Source: an uncultured Dehalococcoidales bacterium (GTDB lineage: Bacteria > Chloroflexota > Dehalococcoidia > Dehalococcoidales > UBA2162). Taken from it: a stretch of 61,036 nucleotides of DNA. Below the pieces are notes generated by a model that saw only the letters and a list, made by a program, of their open reading frames with translations, was not told where the DNA came from and searched no databases. A program made the position numbers and the translations under genes. The DNA is taken from NCBI GenBank assembly GCA_964489895.1, contig CAZBAN010000003.1, forward strand, positions 1 to 61,036, written 5' to 3'. Numbering within the stretch: position 1 is the first letter of the stretch; every line of letters starts with the position of its first letter. Positions 3,723 to 33,314 of the stretch are shown in pieces.

Positions 3723-4415
3723 ATGATTCTTTCAAAGCAAAAACCCTTTGAAGAAATACTGGAGTATCTGGACGGAGAGGGGAAGGTCTTCCTGTTGGGT
3801 TGTAACGGTTGTGCTCAAGCCTCAGGCACCGGCGGTCCGGAGCAGGTTGAGGAGATGAAAGCCAGACTGGAAGAAGTCGGTAAAAAAATCACTGGCAGCG
3901 CTGTAATTGATTTTCTCTGCGATAAAGCCCTGATTAGGTCACGATTGAGGAATTATATAGAAGAAATTAAAGCAGCCGATTCGATACTGGTTATGACCTG
4001 CGGTGTCGGTGTACAGGCGACGGCTGCTTCGGTCAATAAACTCTGCCATCCCGCCTGTGATACGGTCAATCTGGGCGGCAGCCGCGGAGAATGGCCGGGC
4101 AGTGAAAGGTGCATGGAGTGTGGCGAATGTATGCTTGAATATACGGGAGGCATTTGCCCATTAACAGCCTGTGCCAAAGGTTTATTGAACGGGCAGTGCG
4201 GGGGAGCATCCGGGGGAAAGTGCGAGGTCAGCCCGGAGAAGGACTGTGGCTGGGAACTCATTTACAAGAGACTTAAAGCCCTGAACAGGCTGGATAAGCT
4301 GGGGAAGTTCGTTACCCCCAAAGACCATAGCAAAACACTGCCTGAGACCGGACTGATGTCGACATCAAAATGGGCACTGGAACAGACCGGCAATAAGGAG
4401 AGGGTTGCAGAATGA
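3723..4415 (+). CDS. metV: Methylene-THF reductase-associated Cys-rich subunit MetV (MTHFR C-terminal-like domain)
   Basis: 230 aa. LLGCNGCAQ and CMECGECM...CPLTACAKGLLNGQCGG motifs. Stop overlaps the metF start (ATGA). Confidence 0.8.
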   Translation: MILSKQKPFEEILEYLDGEGKVFLLGCNGCAQASGTGGPEQVEEMKARLEEVGKKITGSAVIDFLCDKALIRSRLRNYIEEIKAADSILVMTCGVGVQATAASVNKLCHPACDTVNLGGSRGEWPGSERCMECGECMLEYTGGICPLTACAKGLLNGQCGGASGGKCEVSPEKDCGWELIYKRLKALNRLDKLGKFVTPKDHSKTLPETGLMSTSKWALEQTGNKERVAE

Positions 4416-6072: not shown

Positions 6073-6678
6073 ATGGAGATAACATCGATTATCCTGGCCG
6101 GGGGCAAGAACCTTCGGCTGGGAAGAAGCAAAGCCCTGGAACTTGTTAACGGTAAAAGCCTCATCGAACGGGTTTTCGAACGACTGAAACCGCTGTCCGA
6201 TGAGATTCTGGTGGTAACCTCGCCGGAGCAGTTTGACCTCCCAGGTGATTACCGGGCTAAGATGACGGAAGATATCTATCCCGGTAAAGGTCCCATCGGA
6301 GGTTTATATACGGGCTTGATGGCTTCAAAATCGCTGATAAATATCGTGGTCGCCTGTGACATGCCGTTTCTCAATACGGGGTTGTTGGAGTATATGGTCG
6401 GCCTGGCAGGCGACTATGATGCAGTTGTGCCCCGTTTAGAAAACGGGATGATAGAACCTCTCCATTCAATATACTCCAGGAGTTGTTTGAGTTATATTGA
6501 AAAGCAAATGGGAAATAGCCGGTTGAGCATTCATGCTTTTCTAGACAAGGCACGTGTAAGATATGTAGAGCGGACAGAAAGCGGAAAATTAGACCCACAG
6601 TATTTGTCCTTTTTTAATATAAACGACCAGTCGGACCTGGACCGGGCTATCGAGCTAGCTGAGAAGCACGGCATCTAA
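6073..6678 (+). CDS. mobA: Molybdenum cofactor guanylyltransferase
   Basis: 201 aa. N-terminal ILAGGKNLRLG nucleotide-binding loop, and VACDMPF and EPLHSIY motifs. Confidence 0.8.
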   Translation: MEITSIILAGGKNLRLGRSKALELVNGKSLIERVFERLKPLSDEILVVTSPEQFDLPGDYRAKMTEDIYPGKGPIGGLYTGLMASKSLINIVVACDMPFLNTGLLEYMVGLAGDYDAVVPRLENGMIEPLHSIYSRSCLSYIEKQMGNSRLSIHAFLDKARVRYVERTESGKLDPQYLSFFNINDQSDLDRAIELAEKHGI

Positions 6679-8993: not shown

Positions 8994-10559
8994 GTGATGT
9001 CTGAAGATACCGAAATTAAGAAAGAACAACTGGCAAATTTGAAAGAGCGCCGTAAAAAAGTCCTCGGAATGGGGGGAAGCGACCGTGTGGAGGCGCAGAA
9101 AAAGAAGGATAAGCTGACGGCCCGGGAACGGATAGATGCTCTGCTTGATAAAAACACCTTTAGAGAGACCGGCATGTTCGCTAGGAGCAGGGGGGCGGTT
9201 ACCGATATCCCGGCTGACGGTGTGATTACGGGATACGGTAAAATCGACGGCAGAAAGGTATATATCTATTCACAGGACTTCACAAGTACCGGAGGCACGC
9301 TGTCTGAAGTACACGCTCAAAAAATATGCACCATACTGGACAGCGCCATGAAAACCGGCTGCCCGGTGATCGGGATGAACGATTCCGGCGGAGCCAGGAT
9401 TCAGGACGGCGTGGACGCACTCGCCGGTTACGGTAAAATATTTGTCAGAAATACCATGGCTTCCGGCGTCATTCCCCAGATATGCACCATCCTGGGTCCG
9501 AATGCCGGAGGCGCCGTGTACTCACCGGCGCTGATGGACTTCATATTCATGGTAAAGGGCATCAGCTTTGCCTATATTACCGGACCGCGGGTCGTTCAGT
9601 CGGTGATGGGGCAGGAGATAACCGATGATGAACTGGGCGGTGCAACCGTTGCCCAGAAAAAAGCCGGGGTTGCCTGCCGCTCCGAGAACAGCGAAGAAGA
9701 GTGCTTTAAGAACATAAAGGAACTGCTTGCCTATCTGCCTTCAAGTAACCGGGAAAAGCCGCCCAGGGTCGACTGGGGAGATAAGCCCGACCGCTTGGAC
9801 GATTCTCTGTTTGATATTGTCCCGGCGGCTCCGAATAAACCCTACGACATGCACAAAATAATCGAGAGCGTCTTCGACCAGCGGAAAGACGGTTTAAACT
9901 ATTTCGAGCTGTTCCCTTTATTCGCCACCAACATCATTACCTGCTTTTCCAGGATGAACGGCTGGACGGTGGGTATAATAGCCAACCAGCCGATGTCGAA
10001 GGCTGGTTGTCTGGATATCGACGCCAGCGATAAAGCCTCCCGGTTTATCAGGTTCTGCGACGCTTTTAATATCCCCATCGTCAACCTGGTTGATGTACCG
10101 GGATACCTCCCCGGGAGCGAACAGGAGTGGGGAGGCATAATAAGGCACGGGGCGAAGATGCTTTATGCTTACTCAGAAGCAACCGTGCCCAAGATAACTC
10201 TCACCATCCGGAAAGCCTATGGAGGCGCGTACCTGGGGATGTGCAGTAAAGACCTGGGGGCTGATTTCGTGTACTGCTGGCCCAGCACCGAGCTGGCGGT
10301 GATGGGTGCCGAAGGCGCCGCACCGATTATATTCAGGAGAGAGCTGGAGAAAGCCGAGAACGCCGAGGAGCTGTTACAGCAAAAGATAGATGAGTACCGC
10401 AAAGAGTTCGCCAACCCGTACCGGGCTGCCGAACACCTGCATGTGGATGACGTGATAGAGCCGGCACAGACCAGGTCAAGACTGATAGAGACCCTGGAAA
10501 TGCTGCTGGACAAAAAAGAAGACAGACCAGTAAAGAAACATGGGATAATACCGGCTTAG
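8994..10559 (+). CDS. Acyl-CoA carboxylase carboxyltransferase subunit (propionyl-CoA carboxylase beta / methylmalonyl-CoA decarboxylase alpha family)
   Basis: 521 aa. KLTARERIDALLD N-terminus, GGARIQDG and AYGGAY motifs. The exact start (GTG 8994 or ATG 8997) is uncertain. Confidence 0.88.
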   Translation: MMSEDTEIKKEQLANLKERRKKVLGMGGSDRVEAQKKKDKLTARERIDALLDKNTFRETGMFARSRGAVTDIPADGVITGYGKIDGRKVYIYSQDFTSTGGTLSEVHAQKICTILDSAMKTGCPVIGMNDSGGARIQDGVDALAGYGKIFVRNTMASGVIPQICTILGPNAGGAVYSPALMDFIFMVKGISFAYITGPRVVQSVMGQEITDDELGGATVAQKKAGVACRSENSEEECFKNIKELLAYLPSSNREKPPRVDWGDKPDRLDDSLFDIVPAAPNKPYDMHKIIESVFDQRKDGLNYFELFPLFATNIITCFSRMNGWTVGIIANQPMSKAGCLDIDASDKASRFIRFCDAFNIPIVNLVDVPGYLPGSEQEWGGIIRHGAKMLYAYSEATVPKITLTIRKAYGGAYLGMCSKDLGADFVYCWPSTELAVMGAEGAAPIIFRRELEKAENAEELLQQKIDEYRKEFANPYRAAEHLHVDDVIEPAQTRSRLIETLEMLLDKKEDRPVKKHGIIPA

Positions 10560-10617: not shown

Positions 10618-11655
10618 TTGCTATATATATTATCGGGTCAGGATGATTACTCCATCGCCCGGGCGCTTGAGGCAATAAAACATGAGCTCGGCGACCAGTC
10701 GGCTTTGGCGGCGGGTACCACCACACTCGAAGGCAATCAACTGACGCTGGATGAGCTTAAAACCACCTGCGAAACGATGCCGTTTTTGACCGAAAAGCGA
10801 CTGGTTATCATCAACGGTTTACTGGGTCGGTTCGAACCTCAGCGCAGGTCCCGCCGCCAGGGAAGAACCGCCAAAAACAACGGGAATAAGGACGAAGCCA
10901 GGGCATTCATCGACTGCATCGGCGGAATCCCGGACAGCACCGTGCTGGTGCTGGTCGAGGGCGTGATATCCGGTGACAATCCTCTCCTGAAAGGACTTGC
11001 CGGCAGGGCAACGGTCAGGAATTTCCCTCTGCCAAAAGAAGCAAAGCTTCGCGAGTGGATTCAGAAAAAGGTGAAGGATAAAGGCGGCAGTATCTCGCCG
11101 AAGGCGGTACAGCTCCTGGCGAGGCTGGTGGGCAGCAACCTGTGGATTATGGCCAGCGAGGTTGAAAAGCTGCTCCTGTATGTTGAAGGTCGCACCATCG
11201 GGGAAGAGGACGTTAGGGCTGTAGTCGGCTATAACCAGCAGGCGACTGTTTTCAATATGGTTGACGCCATCCTTGAGTTCAGAGCCGAACTGGCCGAGCA
11301 GTTCCTTCAGCAACTGTTTCTCAGCGGTGTAGCCCCGGTGTACCTGCTCTTTATGCTGTCGCGGCAGGTGCAGTTTATAGTCAGGGTGAAAGAGCTGGCA
11401 AGAAAAAGGAGGACCAACAGGGAGATGCAGAACAGTCTGGGCATGACCTCGGAGTATGTCCTGAAAAAGACACTGGAGCAGGCAAGCAGGTATTCTTTAC
11501 CCAGGCTCAGAGAAGTATACCGGCGCATTCTTGATACCGACCTCTCCATTAAGACCGGGAAGTACGATGCCGAGCTTGCCCTTAACATGCTGGTTGCCGA
11601 GCTGTGTAAAAGGAGCAGGAGCCGTCCTGTCCAGTCCAGACCGGAGATGAGTTGA
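10618..11655 (+). CDS. holA: DNA polymerase III delta subunit
   Basis: 345 aa, TTG start. YILSGQDDY N-terminus and an overall HolA-like pattern. Confidence 0.75.
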   Translation: MLYILSGQDDYSIARALEAIKHELGDQSALAAGTTTLEGNQLTLDELKTTCETMPFLTEKRLVIINGLLGRFEPQRRSRRQGRTAKNNGNKDEARAFIDCIGGIPDSTVLVLVEGVISGDNPLLKGLAGRATVRNFPLPKEAKLREWIQKKVKDKGGSISPKAVQLLARLVGSNLWIMASEVEKLLLYVEGRTIGEEDVRAVVGYNQQATVFNMVDAILEFRAELAEQFLQQLFLSGVAPVYLLFMLSRQVQFIVRVKELARKRRTNREMQNSLGMTSEYVLKKTLEQASRYSLPRLREVYRRILDTDLSIKTGKYDAELALNMLVAELCKRSRSRPVQSRPEMS

Positions 11656-11656
11656 A

Positions 11657-12670
11657 ATGGCTGCCGGAGATAAAGCTGTTATTGCCGTAACAATGGGTGA
11701 CGCTGCCGGCATCGGTCCTGAAATCATCGTCAAAGCCCTCGGGCAGGAGCATATCTACCGCGTCTGTTGTCCTCTGGTCATCGGTGAAAGCGGCATTATG
11801 CGGCAGGCTATAAAGCTGGTAAACAGCCCGTTGAAGCTGAATCCTGTAGAAACGGCAGATGAGATAAAGGGCACTCACGGCACTATTGACCTTCTTGACC
11901 TTAAAAATCTCGATATTAAAGAAGTGGTCATGGGGCAGGTAAACGCGGCTTGCGGCAGGGCGGCTATGGAGTACATCGCCAGGGCTGCCGATATGGCGCT
12001 GAAAGGTGAGGTCAGGGCTATCGCTACCGCGCCGATAAACAAGGGAGCGGTGATAAAGGCGGGATATGAAGACACCGGGCACATGAAATATCTTGCCCGT
12101 CTGACCGGCACCACCGAATATGCCGCTATGCTGGTCACCGGGTCGCTGCGGGTAGTGCATCTGAGCGACCACTATTCGCTTAAAGAGGCATGTGAACTGG
12201 TTACCAGAGATAGAATACTTGCCAAGCTGAGACTGGTGGATAGATCTTTCCGTCAGTGGGGTTTTGAAAAGCCCCGTATCGGCGTGGCTGCCCTCAATCC
12301 CCACGGCAGCGACGGCGGGTTGTTCGGCTCGGAAGAAGCGGAGCAGATTGCGCCGGCTGTTGAAGAAGCGAGGGATTCGGGCATAGATGCCCGTGGTCCT
12401 TTTCCCGCCGATACGATATATACCCGCGCTATCAACGGAGAGTTCGATGTCGTCCTCGCCATGTACCACGACCAGGGGCATATCGCCGTCAAAGTACACG
12501 GCTTCGAGAAGAGCGTGGCTGTTACCCTGGGACTGCCGTTCGTGCGTACTTCCGTTGACCACGGTACGGCTTTCGATATAGCCGGTAAGGGCATCGCTGA
12601 TTCTCAAAGCATGGAAGAAGCAATCAGGACAGCCGTGAAATTGAGCGGAGAAGGCGGGCTTGCGGAGTAA
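11657..12670 (+). CDS. pdxA: 4-hydroxythreonine-4-phosphate dehydrogenase family (PdxA)
   Basis: 337 aa. ITMGDAAGIGPEI, LNPHG and MYHDQGH motifs. Confidence 0.85.
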   Translation: MAAGDKAVIAVTMGDAAGIGPEIIVKALGQEHIYRVCCPLVIGESGIMRQAIKLVNSPLKLNPVETADEIKGTHGTIDLLDLKNLDIKEVVMGQVNAACGRAAMEYIARAADMALKGEVRAIATAPINKGAVIKAGYEDTGHMKYLARLTGTTEYAAMLVTGSLRVVHLSDHYSLKEACELVTRDRILAKLRLVDRSFRQWGFEKPRIGVAALNPHGSDGGLFGSEEAEQIAPAVEEARDSGIDARGPFPADTIYTRAINGEFDVVLAMYHDQGHIAVKVHGFEKSVAVTLGLPFVRTSVDHGTAFDIAGKGIADSQSMEEAIRTAVKLSGEGGLAE

Positions 12671-18882: not shown

Positions 18883-20091
18883 ATGGCTAAAACAGTCGAA
18901 CAGATAAACAAAAAGATAAAAGAAGGCAAGGCAGTAGTAGTTACTGCTGAAGAAATAATTGACCTGGTCAAAGAAAAGGGCGTGAAAAAAGCTGCCAGTG
19001 AAGTAGACGTTGTCACCACCGGTACTTTCAGCCCGATGTGCTCATCGAGTGCTTATTTCAACATCGGACACTCAAATCCTAGAATTAAATTGGCTGGAGG
19101 AAGGACGTATCTCAATGATGTCCCGGCATATACCGGAATGGCGGCAGTAGACCTGCTGATAGGTGCCACCGCCATTCCCGATGACGACCCCAGGAACAGA
19201 GTCCATCCCGGTGAATTCAACTACGGGGGCGGTCACGTTATCGAAGAACTCGTTGCTGGCAAAGACGTCAGGCTGGTGGCAACCGCTCACGGTACCGACT
19301 GCTACCCGCGGAGACGGCTGGAGACCTGGATTAACATCAAAGACCTGAATGAGGCGGTGCTCTTTAACCTCAGGAATGCCTGCCAGAATTACAACGTAGC
19401 CGTGAATCTTTCAGACAAAACTATTTATACCTACATGGGCATTCTAAAACCCCGCCTGGGCAATGCCAATTACTCCAGCGCCGGGCAGCTTTCACCGCTG
19501 TTCAACGATCCCTATTATAAGACAATTGGCATCGGCACCAGGGTATTCCTTGGAGGCGGTACCGGATTCGTTACCTGGCAGGGTACCCAGCACAATCCCG
19601 GAGTGCCCCGTAACGAAAAAGGAGTGCCGAAAAGCGGAGCCGGAACTCTGGCTTTAGTCGGCGACCTTAAGCAGATGAACTCGAAGTGGCTGGTTGGAAT
19701 CAGCATACTCGGTTACGGCTGCTCACTCAGCGTCGGCATCGGCGTACCCATACCGGTTCTTTCTGAAGAAATCCTGGAATACACGGCAATTACCGATGAC
19801 GACATAATAGCCACGATTATCGACTACTCCCAGGCATACCCCAATCTAGAGTCGGATAATCTGGGAGAAGTCACTTACGGGCAGCTCAGGAGCGGGCAGA
19901 TAAAGATACAGAACAAGAACGTGCCCACGGCTTCTCTTTCCAGCTACTCTCGCGCCGTGGAAATCGCAACCATACTGAAAAAGTGGATACAGGACGGCAA
20001 ATTCCTGCTTACGGAACCGGTAGCGCCCATACCCGGCGCAGACTCGGGCGTTACCTTCAAGCCGCTTAAAGAACGTCCGCTGGAGGGATAA
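18883..20091 (+). CDS. COG1900/DUF39 homocysteine biosynthesis protein (aspartate-semialdehyde sulfur-incorporation type)
   Basis: 402 aa. VVTAEE...VDVVTTGTFSPMCSS N-terminal pattern typical of COG1900. Followed by a NIL-ferredoxin gene, as in methanogens. Confidence 0.8.
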   Translation: MAKTVEQINKKIKEGKAVVVTAEEIIDLVKEKGVKKAASEVDVVTTGTFSPMCSSSAYFNIGHSNPRIKLAGGRTYLNDVPAYTGMAAVDLLIGATAIPDDDPRNRVHPGEFNYGGGHVIEELVAGKDVRLVATAHGTDCYPRRRLETWINIKDLNEAVLFNLRNACQNYNVAVNLSDKTIYTYMGILKPRLGNANYSSAGQLSPLFNDPYYKTIGIGTRVFLGGGTGFVTWQGTQHNPGVPRNEKGVPKSGAGTLALVGDLKQMNSKWLVGISILGYGCSLSVGIGVPIPVLSEEILEYTAITDDDIIATIIDYSQAYPNLESDNLGEVTYGQLRSGQIKIQNKNVPTASLSSYSRAVEIATILKKWIQDGKFLLTEPVAPIPGADSGVTFKPLKERPLEG

Positions 20092-27032: not shown

Positions 27033-27073
27033 TCCCGACTTCCTGCTGCTGCGTGTGTGGTATAATTTAGTTG

Positions 27074-27547
27074 ATGGGGATAAAGACGATAACCACCAAC
27101 CGAAAAGCGTACCACAACTACCACATACAGGATAACGTGGAAGCGGGAATTGCACTGACCGGCACGGAGATAAAGTCGATACGAGCCGGTAAGACCAGCC
27201 TGTCTGATGCCTATGTCAGGCCTGAAAACGGCGAACTGTGGCTTCTGAACGCTCATATTGCCCGTTACGATGCCGCCAGCTATATGAGCCACGAGCCTAC
27301 GAGACCGAGAAAACTGCTTTTACATCGCAGAGAGATTGCAGAATTAGCCGGCAAGGTGGCGGAAAAAGGACTGACACTGGTCCCGCTCAGAATATACCTC
27401 AAGGATGGTATCGCCAAGGTCGAGATTGCCCTGGCGAGGGGCAAGAGGTTATATGACAAGCGTGAGTCCATAGCCCGTCGTGACGCAGAAAGAGAGATGG
27501 ACCGGGCTGTAAAAAGGAGGAAGCAGAAGGGCAAGGTTTACAATTAA
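27074..27547 (+). CDS. smpB: SsrA-binding protein
   Basis: About 157 aa. NRKAYHNY N-terminus and a basic C-terminal tail. ssrA follows immediately. Confidence 0.92.
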   Translation: MGIKTITTNRKAYHNYHIQDNVEAGIALTGTEIKSIRAGKTSLSDAYVRPENGELWLLNAHIARYDAASYMSHEPTRPRKLLLHRREIAELAGKVAEKGLTLVPLRIYLKDGIAKVEIALARGKRLYDKRESIARRDAEREMDRAVKRRKQKGKVYN

Positions 27548-27564
27548 CATAACATTACCTCACT

Positions 27565-27919
27565 GGGGGCGCGCGGGTTCGACAGGGGAGGTATGCTACA
27601 GGATTGCAGGCTGAGGTGCCGCTAACCTCATAAAACAAGTGGCAAAAATAACTGGCGAAGAACCAGTATTAGTTGCCGCCTAATTAATTAGGCGGCACAT
27701 CCAACCTGACCTCACCCCGGCGGGTCAGGATTGGGTGACGTTCAGTCGGGGTGCCACCGCTCCGATGTCGATAAGAGTGGTGAAAGAAAAATCGGCTGGT
27801 CTGGCCGGACTCGGTCGGCAGAGGCCGGCATAGACGAGACTAAAGAGCCGGCTAAGCCTGTAGTATATTCTGGGTAGCCTCTTTTGGACGGGGAGTTCGA
27901 CTCTCCCCCGCCTCCACCA
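27565..27919 (+). ncRNA. ssrA: Transfer-messenger RNA
   Basis: The 5' GGGGGCG pairs with the 3' CGCCUCC-ACCA, with a G3-U pair. GGUUCGAC lies near the 5' end and the T-arm GGAGUUCGACUCUCCCC near the 3' end. The tag frame GGC..GCC GCC TAA (27654-27683) encodes GEEPVLVAA. The stop codon sits in a GCCGCCUAA/UUAGGCGGC hairpin. Confidence 0.9.
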
Positions 27920-27920
27920 G
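27892..27920 (+). repeat. Direct repeat copy 1 (genuine ssrA 3' end; attL-like)
   Basis: GGAGTTCGACTCTCCCCCGCCTCCACCAG matches 30662-30690 at 26 of 29 positions. Confidence 0.6.
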
Positions 27921-28098
27921 GAAGTTGAAAAGGGCTTCGGTGAAAACGGGAGTCTTTTTTAAATATTTATGTTTTCTTGTTTCTAATTCTTGTACTGACT
28001 TTCCGTTTAGTTTATAATCGCTATGCTTTTTTCTGCATTGATCAAACATCCGAACTTGATAAATGATATCGAATAATAAAGTAAAAGGAAGGAAATAA

Positions 28099-28566
28099 AT
28101 GGGAGAGTCAAAATTTGAACAGTACATTGTAAGAGACCTGTGGCATAAGTCATATCCTGAAGACTTCCATGCCGAGGTGACAAAACCGGTTCTGGGTATG
28201 AGGATTGATAAGATGCCAGGTTCCACCTATTTGCCCTTCGCGTTGTCCTGGGTGCCGATCACAGAAGCCTTTTTAATGGCGCCGGAACCTCATGTACACG
28301 ACTGGGATGAGTTTCTCATGTTCATCGGCGGAGATACTACCAACCTGTTAGACCTGGGGGGTGAAGTCGAATTTTCTTTGGGTGATGATCCAGACAACAT
28401 GGAAAAGTTTGTCTTCACAACACCCACGGTCGTTCATCTTACAAAAGGATTATGGCATTGCCCGCTCAATTTCAAGAGAGTAGATGATCCTGCCAAGCCT
28501 GTACTTTTCACGAACCTGATGTTTACAACTGATTACACGATGAAAAGAGCAAAAGACGTAAAATAA
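28099..28566 (+). CDS. Metal-binding cupin-fold protein (paralog of 44361-44855)
   Basis: Cupin motif 1 HVHDWDEFLMFIGG (HxHx3Ex6G) and motif 2 GLWHCPLN (Gx2Hx3N). RBS AAGGAAGG upstream. Confidence 0.6.
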   Translation: MGESKFEQYIVRDLWHKSYPEDFHAEVTKPVLGMRIDKMPGSTYLPFALSWVPITEAFLMAPEPHVHDWDEFLMFIGGDTTNLLDLGGEVEFSLGDDPDNMEKFVFTTPTVVHLTKGLWHCPLNFKRVDDPAKPVLFTNLMFTTDYTMKRAKDVK

Positions 28567-28865
28567 AAAGTACATGGTGTCCGGTCGGCTAAATCTCCTG
28601 GACTTAATCAGAATCGCCAGGATGATACCTGGCCCTGGACTAGACTAAACAAAACCAAGCATTGTTTCAGGTGGATATTGGAGGAGCAGATTCGTACTAT
28701 GCCGATTATGACTTAACAGGGCTACCGTTATTTGGGGGCAGTATAATTATTCAGTGATTAGCTTTTACCTCCCGAAATCGTAGGGAGTGAATATTATGAA
28801 TGAGAGGGTACCATAAACTACCGAAAATCCGACGTTTACAGTACCCTTTATTATCAGGAGGGAAT

Positions 28866-30614
28866 ATGGTAACAAAAGACAGAATATACAAATGTTTAAA
28901 CCCCATCGGAATCCAGGACCCGGTTGACTTATATCCTCTGGCGCCCCGCCTTGACCGGCTTGATGGAAAAACTATCATGTTCAACATGATGGTCAACGTT
29001 GAACAGGAATTTCTCACACCTTTAGAGAAAATGCTGAGGAGTAATTATCCCGAAGTCAACTGGATCTTCAGGGAGTCAGGTCCACCGATACCCGATGAGG
29101 AGCTAAGTAATACCGATGCCCTGATACAGGGAGTGGCATTCTGACATGGTGCTATTAAAGGGCAGTTGCCCCATGCAGCGCAATTCGAAAAAGTGGGAAA
29201 ACCGGCTGTAGTTATCGTCTTCGAAGACCAGGATGAATGCCTCAAGCAGGGAGCCCTGCTCCTCGGTATTCCCCATGTGCGAAGAGCATACTGCTCACGT
29301 ACAGGGAATGGAGTTGAAGATGCCGCCCGTATTATCAAGCCGTTGATGGATGCCCTGACCTTGCCTCTGACTGCGAAAGAAAAAGAAGGCGGCAGATGGG
29401 GAGTATCTGATAATAGGATAATTTTCGAGGGAACCCTCGACGAAGCTGAAGAATTCTATGAGCGTGCAGAAAAAGTCCCCGTTCTTGGAAATGCCTATAT
29501 ATCTCTCTATACGGATGGGATGGCGATAAGGATCCCCACCGAGGAGCGGGTACAGGCGATGCTGAAAGGCACCAGCCATAAGCCGGATGAAGTGATAACT
29601 CTTCAATCCGGTCATAAACAAAGAGAAATGGGGGTCGGAGGTAAGAAGGGTACTCCGGTTCGTTTTGAGCCTCTGAAACGTACAGCTACCGTTGAAAAGG
29701 TTGCCATCAACGCCGTGATGGCAGGATGCAGACCGGAGTATATGCCTGTACTTCTGGCGATTGCTGAAGCAGGAGGCGGTGGGGGGGACGGGCGTGGTAG
29801 TCTGGGATTTTGCGTTAGTGGCCCTATCGCTAAAGAGATAGGAATGAATTTTGATGTGGGGATGCTCGGACCAGGAAATCAGGCCAACAGGAGTATCGGT
29901 CGAGCTGCTGAGCTCATGTGGTGTAATCTGGGAGGAAATATCCCGAAAGTAACCAGCTGCGGAATCATGGGTAACCCGCTTTTTAACTGCTTCCCGGAGA
30001 ATATCGATGCCCTGCCGCCGGGCTGGAAAGGGGTGAATGAAGAGTACGATTTTAAGAAGGATGAAAGCGTTATTTATGTACTTGGTATGAGGGGAGGGCC
30101 TCCCGGTTCATTAACATTCCACAGCACCGAGTTTAGTCCTGGCAGATACAGGACGCTTCAGAAAAGCGGCAGCGGCGGTATGGCCAAACGCCTCGGTAAA
30201 GAAGGAATTCCCGGTCCTCATAACTGGCTGGAATACCAGGTACCCTCTTTATGGGCGGGTAAAGAAGGAGGCTATAATTTCATAATACTTCCGGAGATGG
30301 CACAGCATCTGTACGAAGCCGGTTTTAAGTCCAAGGATGAAGTCTACCAGTGGCTCTATGAGGCCAGTTTCATGCCATTCAGCGAGTACAGGAAACACGC
30401 CTCGCCCGATTTCCGGACAGGCGGCTGGAGGGGAGTAGAAAAAACTTCAGGTAAACCCTGGAAAGAGCTGCCAGATGACTATATGGTACCGGCTGTAGGC
30501 GATCCTTATGAGAACTGCATAATCGTTGCCGGCGGCGGCGAAGAGACGTCTCACTGGGTCAATGGCCGGACGCCCAGCGCAGACCCTGCATATGGAATAG
30601 ATGTCTGGCGTTAA
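28866..30614 (+). CDS. Candidate selenoprotein, type A copy 1 (582 aa; in-frame UGA at 29142-29144 is residue 93)
   Basis: ORFs 28800-29144 and 29166-30614 are in the same frame and separated only by TGA. HGAI.GQL just after the TGA is conserved with the paralog at 53620-55368. There is no SD or ATG for an independent downstream start. RBS AGGAGGG precedes ATG 28866. Confidence 0.7.
29145..29175 (+). promoter_or_regulatory. Candidate bacterial SECIS hairpin
   Basis: CATG/CATG outer pairs. Apical stem GGGC (29160-29163) with GCCC (29168-29171), and an AGUU loop about 23 nt downstream of the UGA. Confidence 0.45.
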
Positions 30615-30661
30615 ATCTTAATCACATTTATTGGGAAGCAAACCAGAGCATTATTTCAGGT

Positions 30662-30690
30662 GCAGTACGACTCTCCCCCGACTCCACCAG
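30662..30690 (+). repeat. Direct repeat copy 2 (degenerate duplicate of the ssrA 3' end; attR-like)
   Basis: GCAGTACGACTCTCCCCCGACTCCACCAG. The C-to-A change would disrupt acceptor-stem pairing, so this is not a functional tmRNA end. Confidence 0.6.
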
Positions 30691-30720
30691 AAAGGAATAT
30701 GTACCGGACTGTATAAGTGT

Positions 30721-32472
30721 TTAGTATCCCATCGCGGTTTTCATGTCAGTATCAATCCAGAAGTACATAAGGTATTCGTCGATGTTATCATTTCCACCGC
30801 CACCGATGGCTCCATAGAAGTTCTGGAGCCAGGGCCACCACACTACAAATGAATGAGGCGAAGGAAGATAAATCGGCACTGCCAGTTCAAGCTCGTAGGG
30901 ACCGATTTCCTTTAGTATCTGAGCTACTCTGGCATTATCTCTGCCAATGTACCGGGCGATTTCACTGTATGCTTCCTGGATGCGCTGGTCACTGACCCGG
31001 CTGTAATTATAAGGACTTCCCCCAATCATGGACATCATTTCCTGCGGTCTGAGAAGGTAGTCACTCCCGTAAAACGCCTGCTCGTAGGTTCCGCCCATCC
31101 AGGCAGTGAATTCCACTCTGGCAAGTTCCATGTCGATATTGATGGCTTTGAGGTATTCCTTGATTATCGCGAGAAAATCGATATGTTCCGCAGCACAATC
31201 TAGTCTAAAATTAAACCCGTCGGTGTAACCGGCCTCAGCCATCAACTCTCTGGCCCTCTCAACATCATAGCCGAATAAGTCCTGGACTACCTGAGACTGC
31301 TCTTCCAGAGGAGTATATATTCTATCGAATACCGGCAGATCCATGTATGGCCAGGCCAATAGCTCAGCGTGACCGCCGTAGTAATCATCCACTAGTTCCC
31401 GCTGGTTAACCACCAGGTTCATAGCGTACCGTATCCTGATATCGCTAAAGGGAAGAGCCCTGTTGTCGAGCCGGGGCCATATCATACTGGTAATAGAATT
31501 CGCAAACGATTTCACTTCCACTTCGGGGAGTTTTTTCTTCAGATAGTCGACATCTTCCCAGCCTGAGATAACCATCGAGGCAGTGGATATTGTGTCTATT
31601 TTTCCGTTGATAAATAATGCCTGTATATATTGTGCCACTTTGGTAGGAGCATTAAAAATCAATTCTTTCATACCGTCAGCGTAAGGTAACCGGTTCTCTG
31701 GATGAAGCGGATCCATCTGCCAGTAATTGGGATTTCTTACATACTCAATATAACTGTCTATAACATAGTTATCTATCATAAAAGGTCCGGTTCCGATGAA
31801 CTGCTGCCACTCCGTTAGAGTTTCACCTCCGTTCGCCTCTACAGCATCGGGGCATATCAGCCACATATGGTCGCCGATAACAGCCGCCATCATACCCTGC
31901 CACTCAGGTATGACCTTCACCTCGACGGTATGGTTATCAAGCGCTGTAGCCGAAAGTGGAGCCTTCCCGGTTATAGTGTAGTATCTATAATTGAAAGACA
32001 TCGGTGATGAGAATTGCCTTTCGATATTCCATGCGATATCTTCTGCGGTCACTTCTCTGCCGTTAGCCGGCTCTTTATCCCACCAGTGAACATCCGGGCG
32101 GATGTGATAGACGATAGTTTCGTTATCGGGCATTTCCCAGCTTTCCGCCAGTCTGCCAACAAGCGTATCCGTGAAACCACCGAAACCGCTCGTCCAGTCA
32201 TTTTCATTGGCGCCGGCCGGACCTCTCGTCCAGTCTCCACCGAGTAACTCTTCACCCATCATAGATATATTGAACATGTCTGTTCGGGCTGCATAATCCC
32301 ACGCATTCCAACTGGTAGTGCGTATACGGTAATGTATCCCGCCGTATTTCGGCACAGCTGGATCGGCATAATTAGTTACTATATTTTCTGTTTCTTTATC
32401 GCCGCACGATACTATCAACAGCGATGATAACATCAGGAAGCTTAATAAGATGTACAGGAAATGCTTTTTCAC
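30721..32472 (-). CDS. ABC transporter solute-binding lipoprotein, family 5 (peptide/nickel/oligosaccharide type)
   Basis: 583 aa. Signal peptide with lipobox IVSC, and a family-5 SBP-like pattern throughout. No permease or ATPase genes are adjacent. Confidence 0.8.
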   Translation of the reverse strand: MKKHFLYILLSFLMLSSLLIVSCGDKETENIVTNYADPAVPKYGGIHYRIRTTSWNAWDYAARTDMFNISMMGEELLGGDWTRGPAGANENDWTSGFGGFTDTLVGRLAESWEMPDNETIVYHIRPDVHWWDKEPANGREVTAEDIAWNIERQFSSPMSFNYRYYTITGKAPLSATALDNHTVEVKVIPEWQGMMAAVIGDHMWLICPDAVEANGGETLTEWQQFIGTGPFMIDNYVIDSYIEYVRNPNYWQMDPLHPENRLPYADGMKELIFNAPTKVAQYIQALFINGKIDTISTASMVISGWEDVDYLKKKLPEVEVKSFANSITSMIWPRLDNRALPFSDIRIRYAMNLVVNQRELVDDYYGGHAELLAWPYMDLPVFDRIYTPLEEQSQVVQDLFGYDVERARELMAEAGYTDGFNFRLDCAAEHIDFLAIIKEYLKAINIDMELARVEFTAWMGGTYEQAFYGSDYLLRPQEMMSMIGGSPYNYSRVSDQRIQEAYSEIARYIGRDNARVAQILKEIGPYELELAVPIYLPSPHSFVVWWPWLQNFYGAIGGGGNDNIDEYLMYFWIDTDMKTAMGY

Positions 32473-32507: not shown

Positions 32508-33314
32508 TTAGCAATGCCTTGCGAAAAAGGATAAGATAATGCTCTGATATTCTTCAGGTTGCTGTGAGTAGGTGTTGTGCCCGCAATTGGGGAGGACTGC
32601 CAGTTCCCCCTGGGGTAACGAGCGGTACATCAAAACCGCCTGCTCCACGTCGAACAGGCGGCTTCTATCAGGATACAGGACTAAAGCCGGACATTGAACA
32701 TTTTTCAGGGTATCCCTTAAATCAAATGGCTCTGAACCAGATTCATAGACGCCTCCCCCCTCAACGAAAAGCGAGAAAAACTCCGGGGCATAAGTTTCTC
32801 CCTGCCAGTGGATTAGCTTTTCCCGTAATTGCGGCGGGGCATTTTCAAAAGAAGGAAGAATCCTGCTATCTGGTGATTGTGGTGGTTTTTGTGGTTGTTG
32901 TGATGGCTGGTACATCCCGGTTTTGGCACAACACATTGTGCTTGATATAGCTATAGCCTTAACCTTATCAGGATTCTGAGCTGCATAATGGAACCCTATA
33001 GCTCCACCCTCACATTGACCGAGAAAATACATCTTGTTTTTTACGTCCAGGTATTCCACCAGGATTGATAATTCTCTAACACTATTCAGGATATATTGTT
33101 CACTTCTGTAATAATCCCGGAAGTCTTCTCCCTTGTCTGAGTTTCCAAAGCCTCTACGGTCATATGAAATAACTTTGTATCTGGAAGTAAATCCGGTAAG
33201 TACATCTTCCCACATCCTGGTGGAGCCAGCGCCATGATGCAGCAATACCAGAGGTTCTCCTTGACCTTGAACTTCATAATAAATATTGACTCCGTTGTTG
33301 TTTACTTTTGGCAT
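32508..33314 (-). CDS. Alpha/beta-fold hydrolase with a Cys at the nucleophile elbow
   Basis: HHGAGS oxyanion region, elbow LGQCEGG (GxCxG instead of GxSxG), and C-terminal CGHN catalytic His context. Confidence 0.75.
   Translation of the reverse strand: MPKVNNNGVNIYYEVQGQGEPLVLLHHGAGSTRMWEDVLTGFTSRYKVISYDRRGFGNSDKGEDFRDYYRSEQYILNSVRELSILVEYLDVKNKMYFLGQCEGGAIGFHYAAQNPDKVKAIAISSTMCCAKTGMYQPSQQPQKPPQSPDSRILPSFENAPPQLREKLIHWQGETYAPEFFSLFVEGGGVYESGSEPFDLRDTLKNVQCPALVLYPDRSRLFDVEQAVLMYRSLPQGELAVLPNCGHNTYSQQPEEYQSIILSFFARHC

Follow-up and report, generated by a model that had tools for sequence, protein, structure and literature searches.

Genomic islands specific for ssrA, the transfer-messenger RNA (tmRNA) gene, are known from Dehalococcoides, where they have a repeat of about 20 nucleotides (nt), a TTCAG-containing motif upstream of each repeat and the T-loop as their point of insertion, and where islands occur in tandem (PMC3146451). 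An integration module is present in 16 of the 31 published islands, and the other 15 are without any (PMC3146451). In Dehalogenimonas, an ssrA-associated dcpA island has been described (PMC13390414). Here, we examine a 61,036-nt stretch (the window) of contig CAZBAN010000003.1 from an uncultured Dehalococcoidales bacterium, in which the 3' end of ssrA recurs downstream of the gene. In our assessment, this repeated tmRNA 3' end is real and very probably marks two small, now immobile, horizontally acquired cassettes of the serine-recombinase ssrA-island type.

The second copy of the ssrA 3' end and its arm

The genome that holds the window is referred to as G000 (assembly 92% complete); other G numbers denote relatives, which are draft metagenome-assembled genomes, and L numbers denote contigs or loci. 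The repeat core, CGACTCTCCCCCG[C/A]CTCCACCA, lies at 27898-27919 and again at 30668-30689, on the + strand in both cases, 2.75 kb apart and with 21 of 22 bases identical. The core occurs at those two places only in the window, and a chance origin is excluded because 100 dinucleotide shuffles produced 0 matches. The original prediction had paired the 29-mers 27892-27920 and 30662-30690 at 26 of 29 identities, a count that we obtained again, and had held that a C-to-A change in the second copy would upset acceptor-stem pairing. That change, at 30681, indeed falls on C68, whose partner is G5. The second copy is no part of any tmRNA; the 5' half of its T-stem is also mutated, so that no T-arm can form. 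Independent metagenome contigs from several samples carry the same arrangement at 99.6% identity over 3.8 kb, and an assembly artefact is therefore excluded for the junctions. JGI samples 3300031551, 3300032062 and 3300031620 are among the sources of such contigs.

When relatives from the family and the order were searched with the tmRNA gene, additional copies of its 3' end proved to be common. About 35 nt upstream of the second copy form an arm, AAACAAAAC..CAGCATTGTTTCAGGKRGAGT, that defines the attR of ssrA-specific islands across Dehalococcoidales. Copies outside ssrA share TGTTTCAGG(G/T)(G/A)GAGT immediately 5' of TCGAC, a sequence that ssrA itself is without, and within the genus AAACAAAAC..CAGCAT extends this ahead of the shared arm. 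The arm TGTTTCAGGKRGAGT, together with the upstream AAACAAAAC..CAGCAT, is common to the second copy and to non-ssrA copies in many genomes. In the window, the second copy reads GCAAACCAGAGCATTATTTCAGGTGCAGTA-CGAC... and matches a profile of 25 such sites with E=1e-10. As in the described ssrA islands, ssrA is followed downstream by a same-orientation direct repeat of about 20 nt, and a motif, TTTCAGGTGCAGTA at 30654-30667, stands directly 5' of the repeat, where it replaces the ssrA sequence 5' of the T-loop. An arm of this type is found in the attR of G007, G003, G004, G027 and L118 and in about 25 others.

The distribution of the arm is narrow. At two or fewer mismatches, the pattern was found in 20 of the 301 genomes of the order, and reversed-pattern controls gave 0. 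A collection of 185,579 species yielded 25 exact matches. Twenty-three of these loci are labelled Dehalococcoidia, Dehalococcoidales, Dehalococcoidaceae, Dehalogenimonas, SAR202, Chloroflexota, Chloroflexi or Chloroflexia, and the remaining two are a short contig with the label Patescibacteria and an "uncultured bacterium" contig that is unclassified. The distribution also identifies the organism of the window as an uncultured member of Dehalococcoidales.

In G007, at least five att sites lie within 7 kb of ssrA, parting cassettes of one or two genes. An orthologue of the UGSC-family gene of the window is followed by a more decayed att site on another G007 contig (C16), and att sites adjoin other UGSC and SDR paralogs in G003 and G004. 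Elsewhere, arm and repeat follow unrelated genes: a sulfatase gene, a DUF4286 gene and a URO-D-like gene. G000 itself holds two more decayed sites of the class, at C35:9108-9161 and C14:33124-33169.

The array of G007 (C13; L025) also includes variant att sites at 9599-9675 and 11218-11289, with an insertion of about 22 nt (CTCCTGCGGCGGATC..GAC) between the T-loop and acceptor parts, and these may represent a distinct element subfamily. Just past the last att site of that array, positions 11437-12603 encode a 388-amino-acid (aa) protein with two C-terminal 4Fe-4S motifs, which may be dehalogenase-like or a related iron-sulfur enzyme.

Two probable tandem cassettes fused by a deletion

The array on L118, with the overlapping L107, reads in order: repeat, 155-aa open reading frame (ORF), full attR, URO-D-like gene of 455 aa, full attR, a 165-aa gene with a UGSC gene, full attR. 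By blastn, window positions 27890-28675 correspond to L118 392-1176 (97.7% identity) and to L107 5793-6577 (97.6%), and positions 28690-30693 match L118 at 92.1%. On the L118 side, the match stops at 1176 and resumes at 3825. The roughly 2.65 kb absent from the window comprises the repeat half of the attR that follows the 155-aa ORF (attR-A), the URO-D-like cassette with its attR, and the 165-aa gene, as judged from Pfam assignments of the L118 ORFs. The break lies inside the first attR arm, after TTTCAGGTGGA.

Upstream of the point where homology starts (27890), L107 and L118 bear no relation to ssrA. At the other end, homology stops at 30693, which is four bases beyond the CCACCA of the second copy (30689), and the flanks are wholly different from there on. 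Because homology with L118 and L107 starts at 27890 and ends at 30693, we take the repeats to be the true ends of a transferable segment. On this comparison, the 2.8 kb is best read as two tandem cassettes, here A and B, and the window as a deleted derivative of the array. For the window, the practical outcome is that the acquired part is bounded exactly, at 27890-30692.

The arm-only remnant at the end of cassette A matches the attR profile at 28650-28675 (profile positions 3-28; E=0.025 genome-wide). It aligns with the attR arms of G007, G003, G027 and L118, and on both L107 and L118 the matching arm runs on into a full repeat. At the end of cassette B, attR differs by about three to four substitutions at positions that are otherwise conserved, reading GGTGCAGTA for GGKRGAGTT in addition to the C to A in the core.

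The cargo of both cassettes shows signs of horizontal origin. Between G000 and G007, third-codon-position identity is 43-47% for tig, clpP, smpB and a neighbouring gene, and between G000 and G001 it is 47-50% for core genes. The UGSC gene reaches 70% against G007 (C16; 90% aa identity) and 64% against G004, and the 155-aa ORF reaches 81% against G001 (C49; 94% aa identity). This higher synonymous-site similarity of the cargo (70-81%) than of the flanking core genes (43-50%) argues for horizontal transfer. The neighbours of the cassettes on L107 have no counterpart in G000 and are best matched by genes from other genera within the family. As in ssrA islands, then, gene order is interrupted relative to relatives, the content was acquired horizontally, and the same cassettes are found in another context on L107 and L118. 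A look-up of strain variants with an empty site, made with the exact SmpB protein, returned nothing on record.

The genes 5' of ssrA encode trigger factor, ClpP and SmpB (Pfam, NCBIfam), and the tig-clpP-smpB-ssrA block recurs in G003, G007, G001 and G008. The switch at ssrA that was first proposed from the sequence was borne out for gene order: the block is kept, and conserved order stops at the ssrA 3' end in every relative examined.

Within cassette A (Table 1), the first 60 nt or so of the left arm are homologous to the flank downstream of ssrA in G007, and similar left arms follow several att sites in G007, G027 and G019. A terminator scan of this left arm found no good hairpin. The 155-aa protein had no match in Pfam, NCBIfam or PDB. 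We considered and rejected a cupin identity for it, as these databases gave no support and there was just a weak HxH-like match to a cupin in G007. A protein identical to it is encoded on 11 metagenome contigs, one of which has a different neighbourhood. Cargo gene B is a 582-codon frame that is open only with readthrough of an in-frame TGA at 29142-29144, a candidate selenocysteine codon; G000 has a tRNA-Sec gene (C17:34872-34968). About 17 paralogs of gene B are present in G000, all 61% identical to it or less. The solute-binding protein gene beyond attR-B lies outside the L118 homology, and its best homologues in G001 and G007 are on contigs other than the ssrA contig.

Table 1. Features at and around the ssrA locus (positions are those of the window)
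Feature	Positions	Strand	Description and basis
smpB	27071..27547	+	Pfam SmpB, 208 bits, and NCBIfam equivalog; last conserved syntenic protein gene ahead of the variable region
ssrA (tmRNA)	27565..27919	+	Intact; tag peptide GEEPVLVAA; ARAGORN and Rfam RF00023 (170.5 bits, model 1-374, full)
attL core	27890..27919	+	ssrA from its T-arm through the CCA end; start of homology (27890) to the mobile array (L107/L118)
Left arm, cassette A	27920..28098	+	Terminator-like GGGCTTCGG, its hairpin decayed here; AT-rich region upstream of the cargo gene
Cargo gene A	28099..28566	+	155-aa protein; no family match
Truncated attR arm, cassette A	28641..28675	+	Arm only, repeat half deleted; nhmmer attR profile
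Deletion junction	28676..28689		About 2.65 kb of L118 missing here
Cargo gene B	28866..30614	+	Long UGSC-family protein; Pfam UGSC PF24696 on residues 11-139
attR, cassette B	30641..30692	+	Conserved arm 30641-30667 plus second ssrA 3'-end copy 30668-30689; nhmmer E=1e-10
Family-5 solute-binding protein	30721..32472	-	Pfam SBP_bac_5; first gene outside the element

The recombinase, the proposed history and its rivals

Pfam and NCBIfam scans of the segment between the repeats found no recombinase gene of either class. The integration module of the described islands (DsiB, DsiA, RecF-like, ParB, Mom and a tRNA-like gene beside attL) was not found in 27920-30690, and a tblastn search of the window with DsiB gave as its sole match a reverse translation of the ssrA 3' end, with no dsiB remnant. 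A search of the G000 assembly for PF00239 (resolvase) gave no match. The expectation that no integrase would be visible and that the element had decayed was thus upheld, in that none lies in or adjoins the segment.

A recombinase is linked to sites of this class in relatives. In G027, the tmRNA gene and an arm-bearing att site are 16.4 kb apart, and a 541-aa protein with Resolvase, Recombinase and Zn_ribbon domains is encoded on the opposite strand by a gene at L027:17722-19347 that runs into the ssrA 3' end, followed by ParB-N and Mom genes. This set is the integration module of McMurdie 2011 (PMC3146451). Five genomes from the family to which the window belongs have a homologue of this G027 recombinase that overlaps the ssrA 3' end. 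In G288 the gene is split over two frames and in G022 stops interrupt it; the G196 match has one TGA, and G218 and G003 (the closest relative found) retain C-terminal portions only. Another serine recombinase, on G007:C35, was set aside as the linked enzyme because no att site is nearby. The intact 16.4-kb island of G027 carries, at L027 3097-13923, defence-type cargo (PAPS-reductase-like, SMC/AAA, PLD-helicase and DUF3800 genes) and no catabolic genes.

We propose that 27890-30692 is, in all likelihood, what remains of two cassettes that stand in tandem, have no integrase, belong to the Dehalococcoidia family of ssrA-specific genomic islands and have become fixed chromosomal genes. Elements of this family would carry an attP made up of a right arm of about 35 nt, a copy of the ssrA T-arm and acceptor end, and a terminator-supplying left arm. 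As expected from the family, a large serine recombinase of the DsiB type would recombine attP with the ssrA 3' end, leaving ssrA intact and turning the displaced repeat into attR, and repeated integration would pile cassettes downstream of ssrA. The present ssrA 3' end and terminator region would then have been supplied by the element. Cassette A with the 155-aa ORF and cassette B with the UGSC selenoprotein gene would both have been gained horizontally in this lineage; these small cassettes presumably moved in trans or by accretion. A deletion of about 2.65 kb would have fused A and B, with loss of the 5' part of B and of the repeat half of attR-A, and the surviving attR at 30641-30692 would since have gathered point mutations and is probably no longer a substrate. 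That the cassettes are now fixed follows from the lack of any recombinase in the window and of any detectable resolvase-type gene in the assembly.

Several points weigh against this proposal. Codon-usage constraint could partly account for the higher synonymous identity of the cargo. On L107 and L118, the leftmost repeat is unattached to ssrA, which means that an array can lie at a distance from this gene or be moved there by rearrangement. The genome-wide match of the arm-only remnant of cassette A is modest, and its putative identity draws on its position and its 97.7% match to L118. With the assembly at its present completeness, a DsiB gene could lie on an unassembled piece. Finally, the action of a recombinase on these att sites is presumed, here as in the literature on the family.

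A first alternative is a much larger island, which would extend from 27.9 kb to some 55 kb and in which 30662-30690 would be an att site, internal or older, of an accreted array that includes the ATPase and a block of redox and selenoprotein genes. Synteny with relatives is lost at ssrA, downstream genes lie on scattered contigs in other species, UGSC and SDR paralogs adjoin att sites in relatives, and the two further att remnants of G000 are on other contigs. Ameliorated ancient islands were also proposed for Dehalococcoides in McMurdie 2011 (PMC3146451). However, homology to the mobile array stops at 30693, and the att profile found nothing further in the window, 30.7 to 61 kb included. The V-ATPase A and B genes show 41-46% third-position identity to G007 and G001, and genes at 45-47 kb show 46-49%, both at core level; four of the five genus members retain the ATPase operon as a unit. 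Profiling of GC and tetranucleotide composition revealed no clear step at either repeat or at 55 kb, and for tetranucleotide distance 28-31 kb ranks at the genome's 77th percentile. We therefore consider this larger island, which the original prediction had raised as a possibility, unlikely, and place the ATPase and the downstream redox block outside the element. An internal att site is in fact present, inside the 2.8 kb at 28641-28675.

The stretch next to the element is mildly atypical. From 31 to 36 kb, GC is lower (0.44-0.45) and tetranucleotide distance is at the 92-94th percentile, values that would favour a larger island. The genes there encode a solute-binding protein, an alpha/beta hydrolase, a SnoaL-like protein and a nitroreductase, with homologues scattered over contigs in relatives. 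Four genes at 30.7-35 kb have an intermediate third-position identity (49-61%), slightly raised in the direction of the same alternative. The stretch from 30.7 to 35 or 36 kb could be an older, ameliorated acquisition.

Alternatively, the cassettes might still be mobilisable in trans, as a cis-mobilisable unit between ssrA and the repeat at 30668, by a DsiB that is encoded elsewhere or incoming. Both outer sites remain and have nearly identical cores, and integrase-less ssrA islands are common and have been proposed as cis-mobilisable (PMC3146451). Against this stand the departure of attR from the family consensus at three to four positions that the collected copies conserve and the lack of a resolvase-family gene in the assembly. 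In addition, nine of nine same-species metagenome contigs (L108-L116) are identical where they cover the locus, a sample that is biased in having been retrieved via the cargo gene. We give continued mobility little credence.

The cassettes could instead descend from a decayed classical tyrosine-integrase island or prophage targeting the tmRNA 3' end. Tyrosine-integrase islands typically show direct repeats of a tRNA or tmRNA 3' end, a pattern attributed to Williams 2003, and G000 has four PF00589 genes (on C8, C71, C75 and C14). However, two of these are Xer-like and the other two are beside tRNA genes (C14 and C75); no PF00589 gene is found at ssrA in G000 or in G003, G007, G004, G019 and G027; and the recombinase at ssrA in relatives is a large serine recombinase. 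This explanation is very improbable. Since the ssrA regions hold no tyrosine recombinase, the earlier description of the repeat as a tyrosine-integrase footprint gives way to that of a DsiB-type serine-recombinase island.

Scarcely credible, finally, is the reading of the second copy as a coincidental resemblance, or as a tRNA-like RNA element that functions in the 3' untranslated region of the UGSC gene: the second copy does lie 53 nt past the UGSC stop codon and a homologous, more decayed copy follows the G007:C16 orthologue, but chance is excluded, no T-arm can form, the copy folds no better than shuffles (z = -1.5), Rfam finds nothing there, and arm and repeat also follow the unrelated genes noted above in other genomes.

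Sequences reminiscent of tRNA-targeted integration were seen elsewhere in G000. At its start (1-1127), C14 has the 3' half of a tRNA and then a tyrosine integrase, a separate tRNA island; some 32 kb further on, the decayed ssrA-type attR at 33124-33169 (L057 9125-9170) follows a 183-aa ORF that is 84% identical, at the nucleotide level, to the gene that comes first in the UGSC cassette of L118. On C35 (L023), two tRNA-Pro(CGG) genes, at 6374-6450 and 18935-19011, are 12.5 kb apart and identical at 75 of 77 positions. Between them, at 9293-9340 and 130 bp from the ssrA-type att remnant at 9108-9161, is a 48-nt tRNA-Pro-like 3' fragment. The arrangement, which is next to rpoD, resembles a scar of separate integration into a tRNA gene. 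On C18, a seed at the contig end proved to be an ordinary tRNA.

Significance and comparison with known systems

In Dehalococcoides and Dehalogenimonas, the islands at ssrA are known as the vehicle by which dehalogenase genes, those for vinyl chloride among them, have spread. Uncultured Dehalococcoidales use the same family of att sites with different cargo, including members of a large uncharacterised selenoprotein family, and the sites can bound very small cassettes of one gene that form arrays. The conserved att profile of about 57 nt offers a handle for finding recently exchanged accessory genes in hard-to-culture bacteria, and these findings also help explain how expanded enzyme families diversify in them. 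A full-text literature search found no paper joining ssrA, Dehalococcoidia and a serine recombinase, and no description for other Dehalococcoidales families. What is new here is the host lineage, the cargo (a UGSC selenoprotein gene and a small ORF) and the miniature cassette size; the system itself is known from Dehalococcoides (2009-2011) and Dehalogenimonas.

A more speculative possibility, which we regard as doubtful though worth stating, is that in this group of uncultured Dehalococcoidales ssrA anchors an integron-like gene-capture system, in which integrase-less cassettes of 0.5-2.7 kb are mobilised in trans by DsiB-type serine recombinases and stacked, and paralogs of enzyme families are shuffled between species. 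If so, a cassette would consist of a left arm bearing a terminator and promoter, one or two catabolic genes, a right arm of about 35 nt and the ssrA repeat. The families shuffled would be UGSC selenoproteins, small cupin-like proteins, URO-D-like methyltransferases and sulfatases, and the window would be a fossilised array of two cassettes. An integron has an IntI tyrosine integrase, attI with a Pc promoter, and cassettes that end in attC hairpins. The likeness to an integron is one of layout only, an array of one-gene cassettes: no integrase is found at the array, and the cassette ends are ssrA-derived repeats with a linear conserved arm, whose folding is not significant.

Elements of the ICESt1 family, attributed to Pavlovic 2004, reportedly include cis-mobilisable elements that arise by tandem accretion, with tyrosine integrases at the fda locus. 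The segments described here resemble them in being flanked by att sites without recombination genes, in lying beside or deriving from autonomous elements, and in having been shaped by accretion and deletion. They differ in that the integrases of that family are tyrosine integrases acting at fda, and mobilisation here is putative. With the tmRNA islands of tyrosine integrases, the locus shares the repeated 3' end of ssrA and the presumed restoration of ssrA by element sequence; unlike in those islands, no tyrosine integrase (PF00589) is found with ssrA, beside the att sites, in this lineage.

The staphylococcal SCCmec cassettes (CcrAB) are also comparable, having a large serine recombinase, a target site in the 3' end of an essential gene present in one copy, cassettes that may be tandem or composite, and remnants that are not autonomous. 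A similarity between DsiB and CcrB has been reported (PMC3146451). SCCmec differs in its target, orfX/rlmH, and in its staphylococcal host, and the relation is one of analogy and of that reported similarity.

The closest comparison remains that with the ssrA islands of Dehalococcoides and Dehalogenimonas. The host here belongs to another, uncultured family of Dehalococcoidales, and the cargo is a UGSC selenoprotein gene and a small ORF, with sulfatase, URO-D-like and DUF4286 genes in relatives, rather than the reductive dehalogenases of Dehalococcoides. The cassettes are very small (0.5-2.7 kb, one or two genes), one att site has been truncated by deletion and the other mutated, and the assembly has no recombinase. 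In common with those islands, the locus uses the 3' end of the single-copy ssrA as its site, with a direct repeat that spans the T-loop through CCA (about 20 nt) and a conserved TTCAG motif just upstream of each non-ssrA repeat. As in Dehalococcoides, elements are stacked in tandem downstream of ssrA, many are without a module, the region is highly variable between strains, and a relative, G027, has the DsiB-ParB-Mom set with the recombinase gene overlapping attL on the opposite strand. The loss of conserved gene order past ssrA parallels the high-plasticity region downstream of ssrA in Dehalococcoides.

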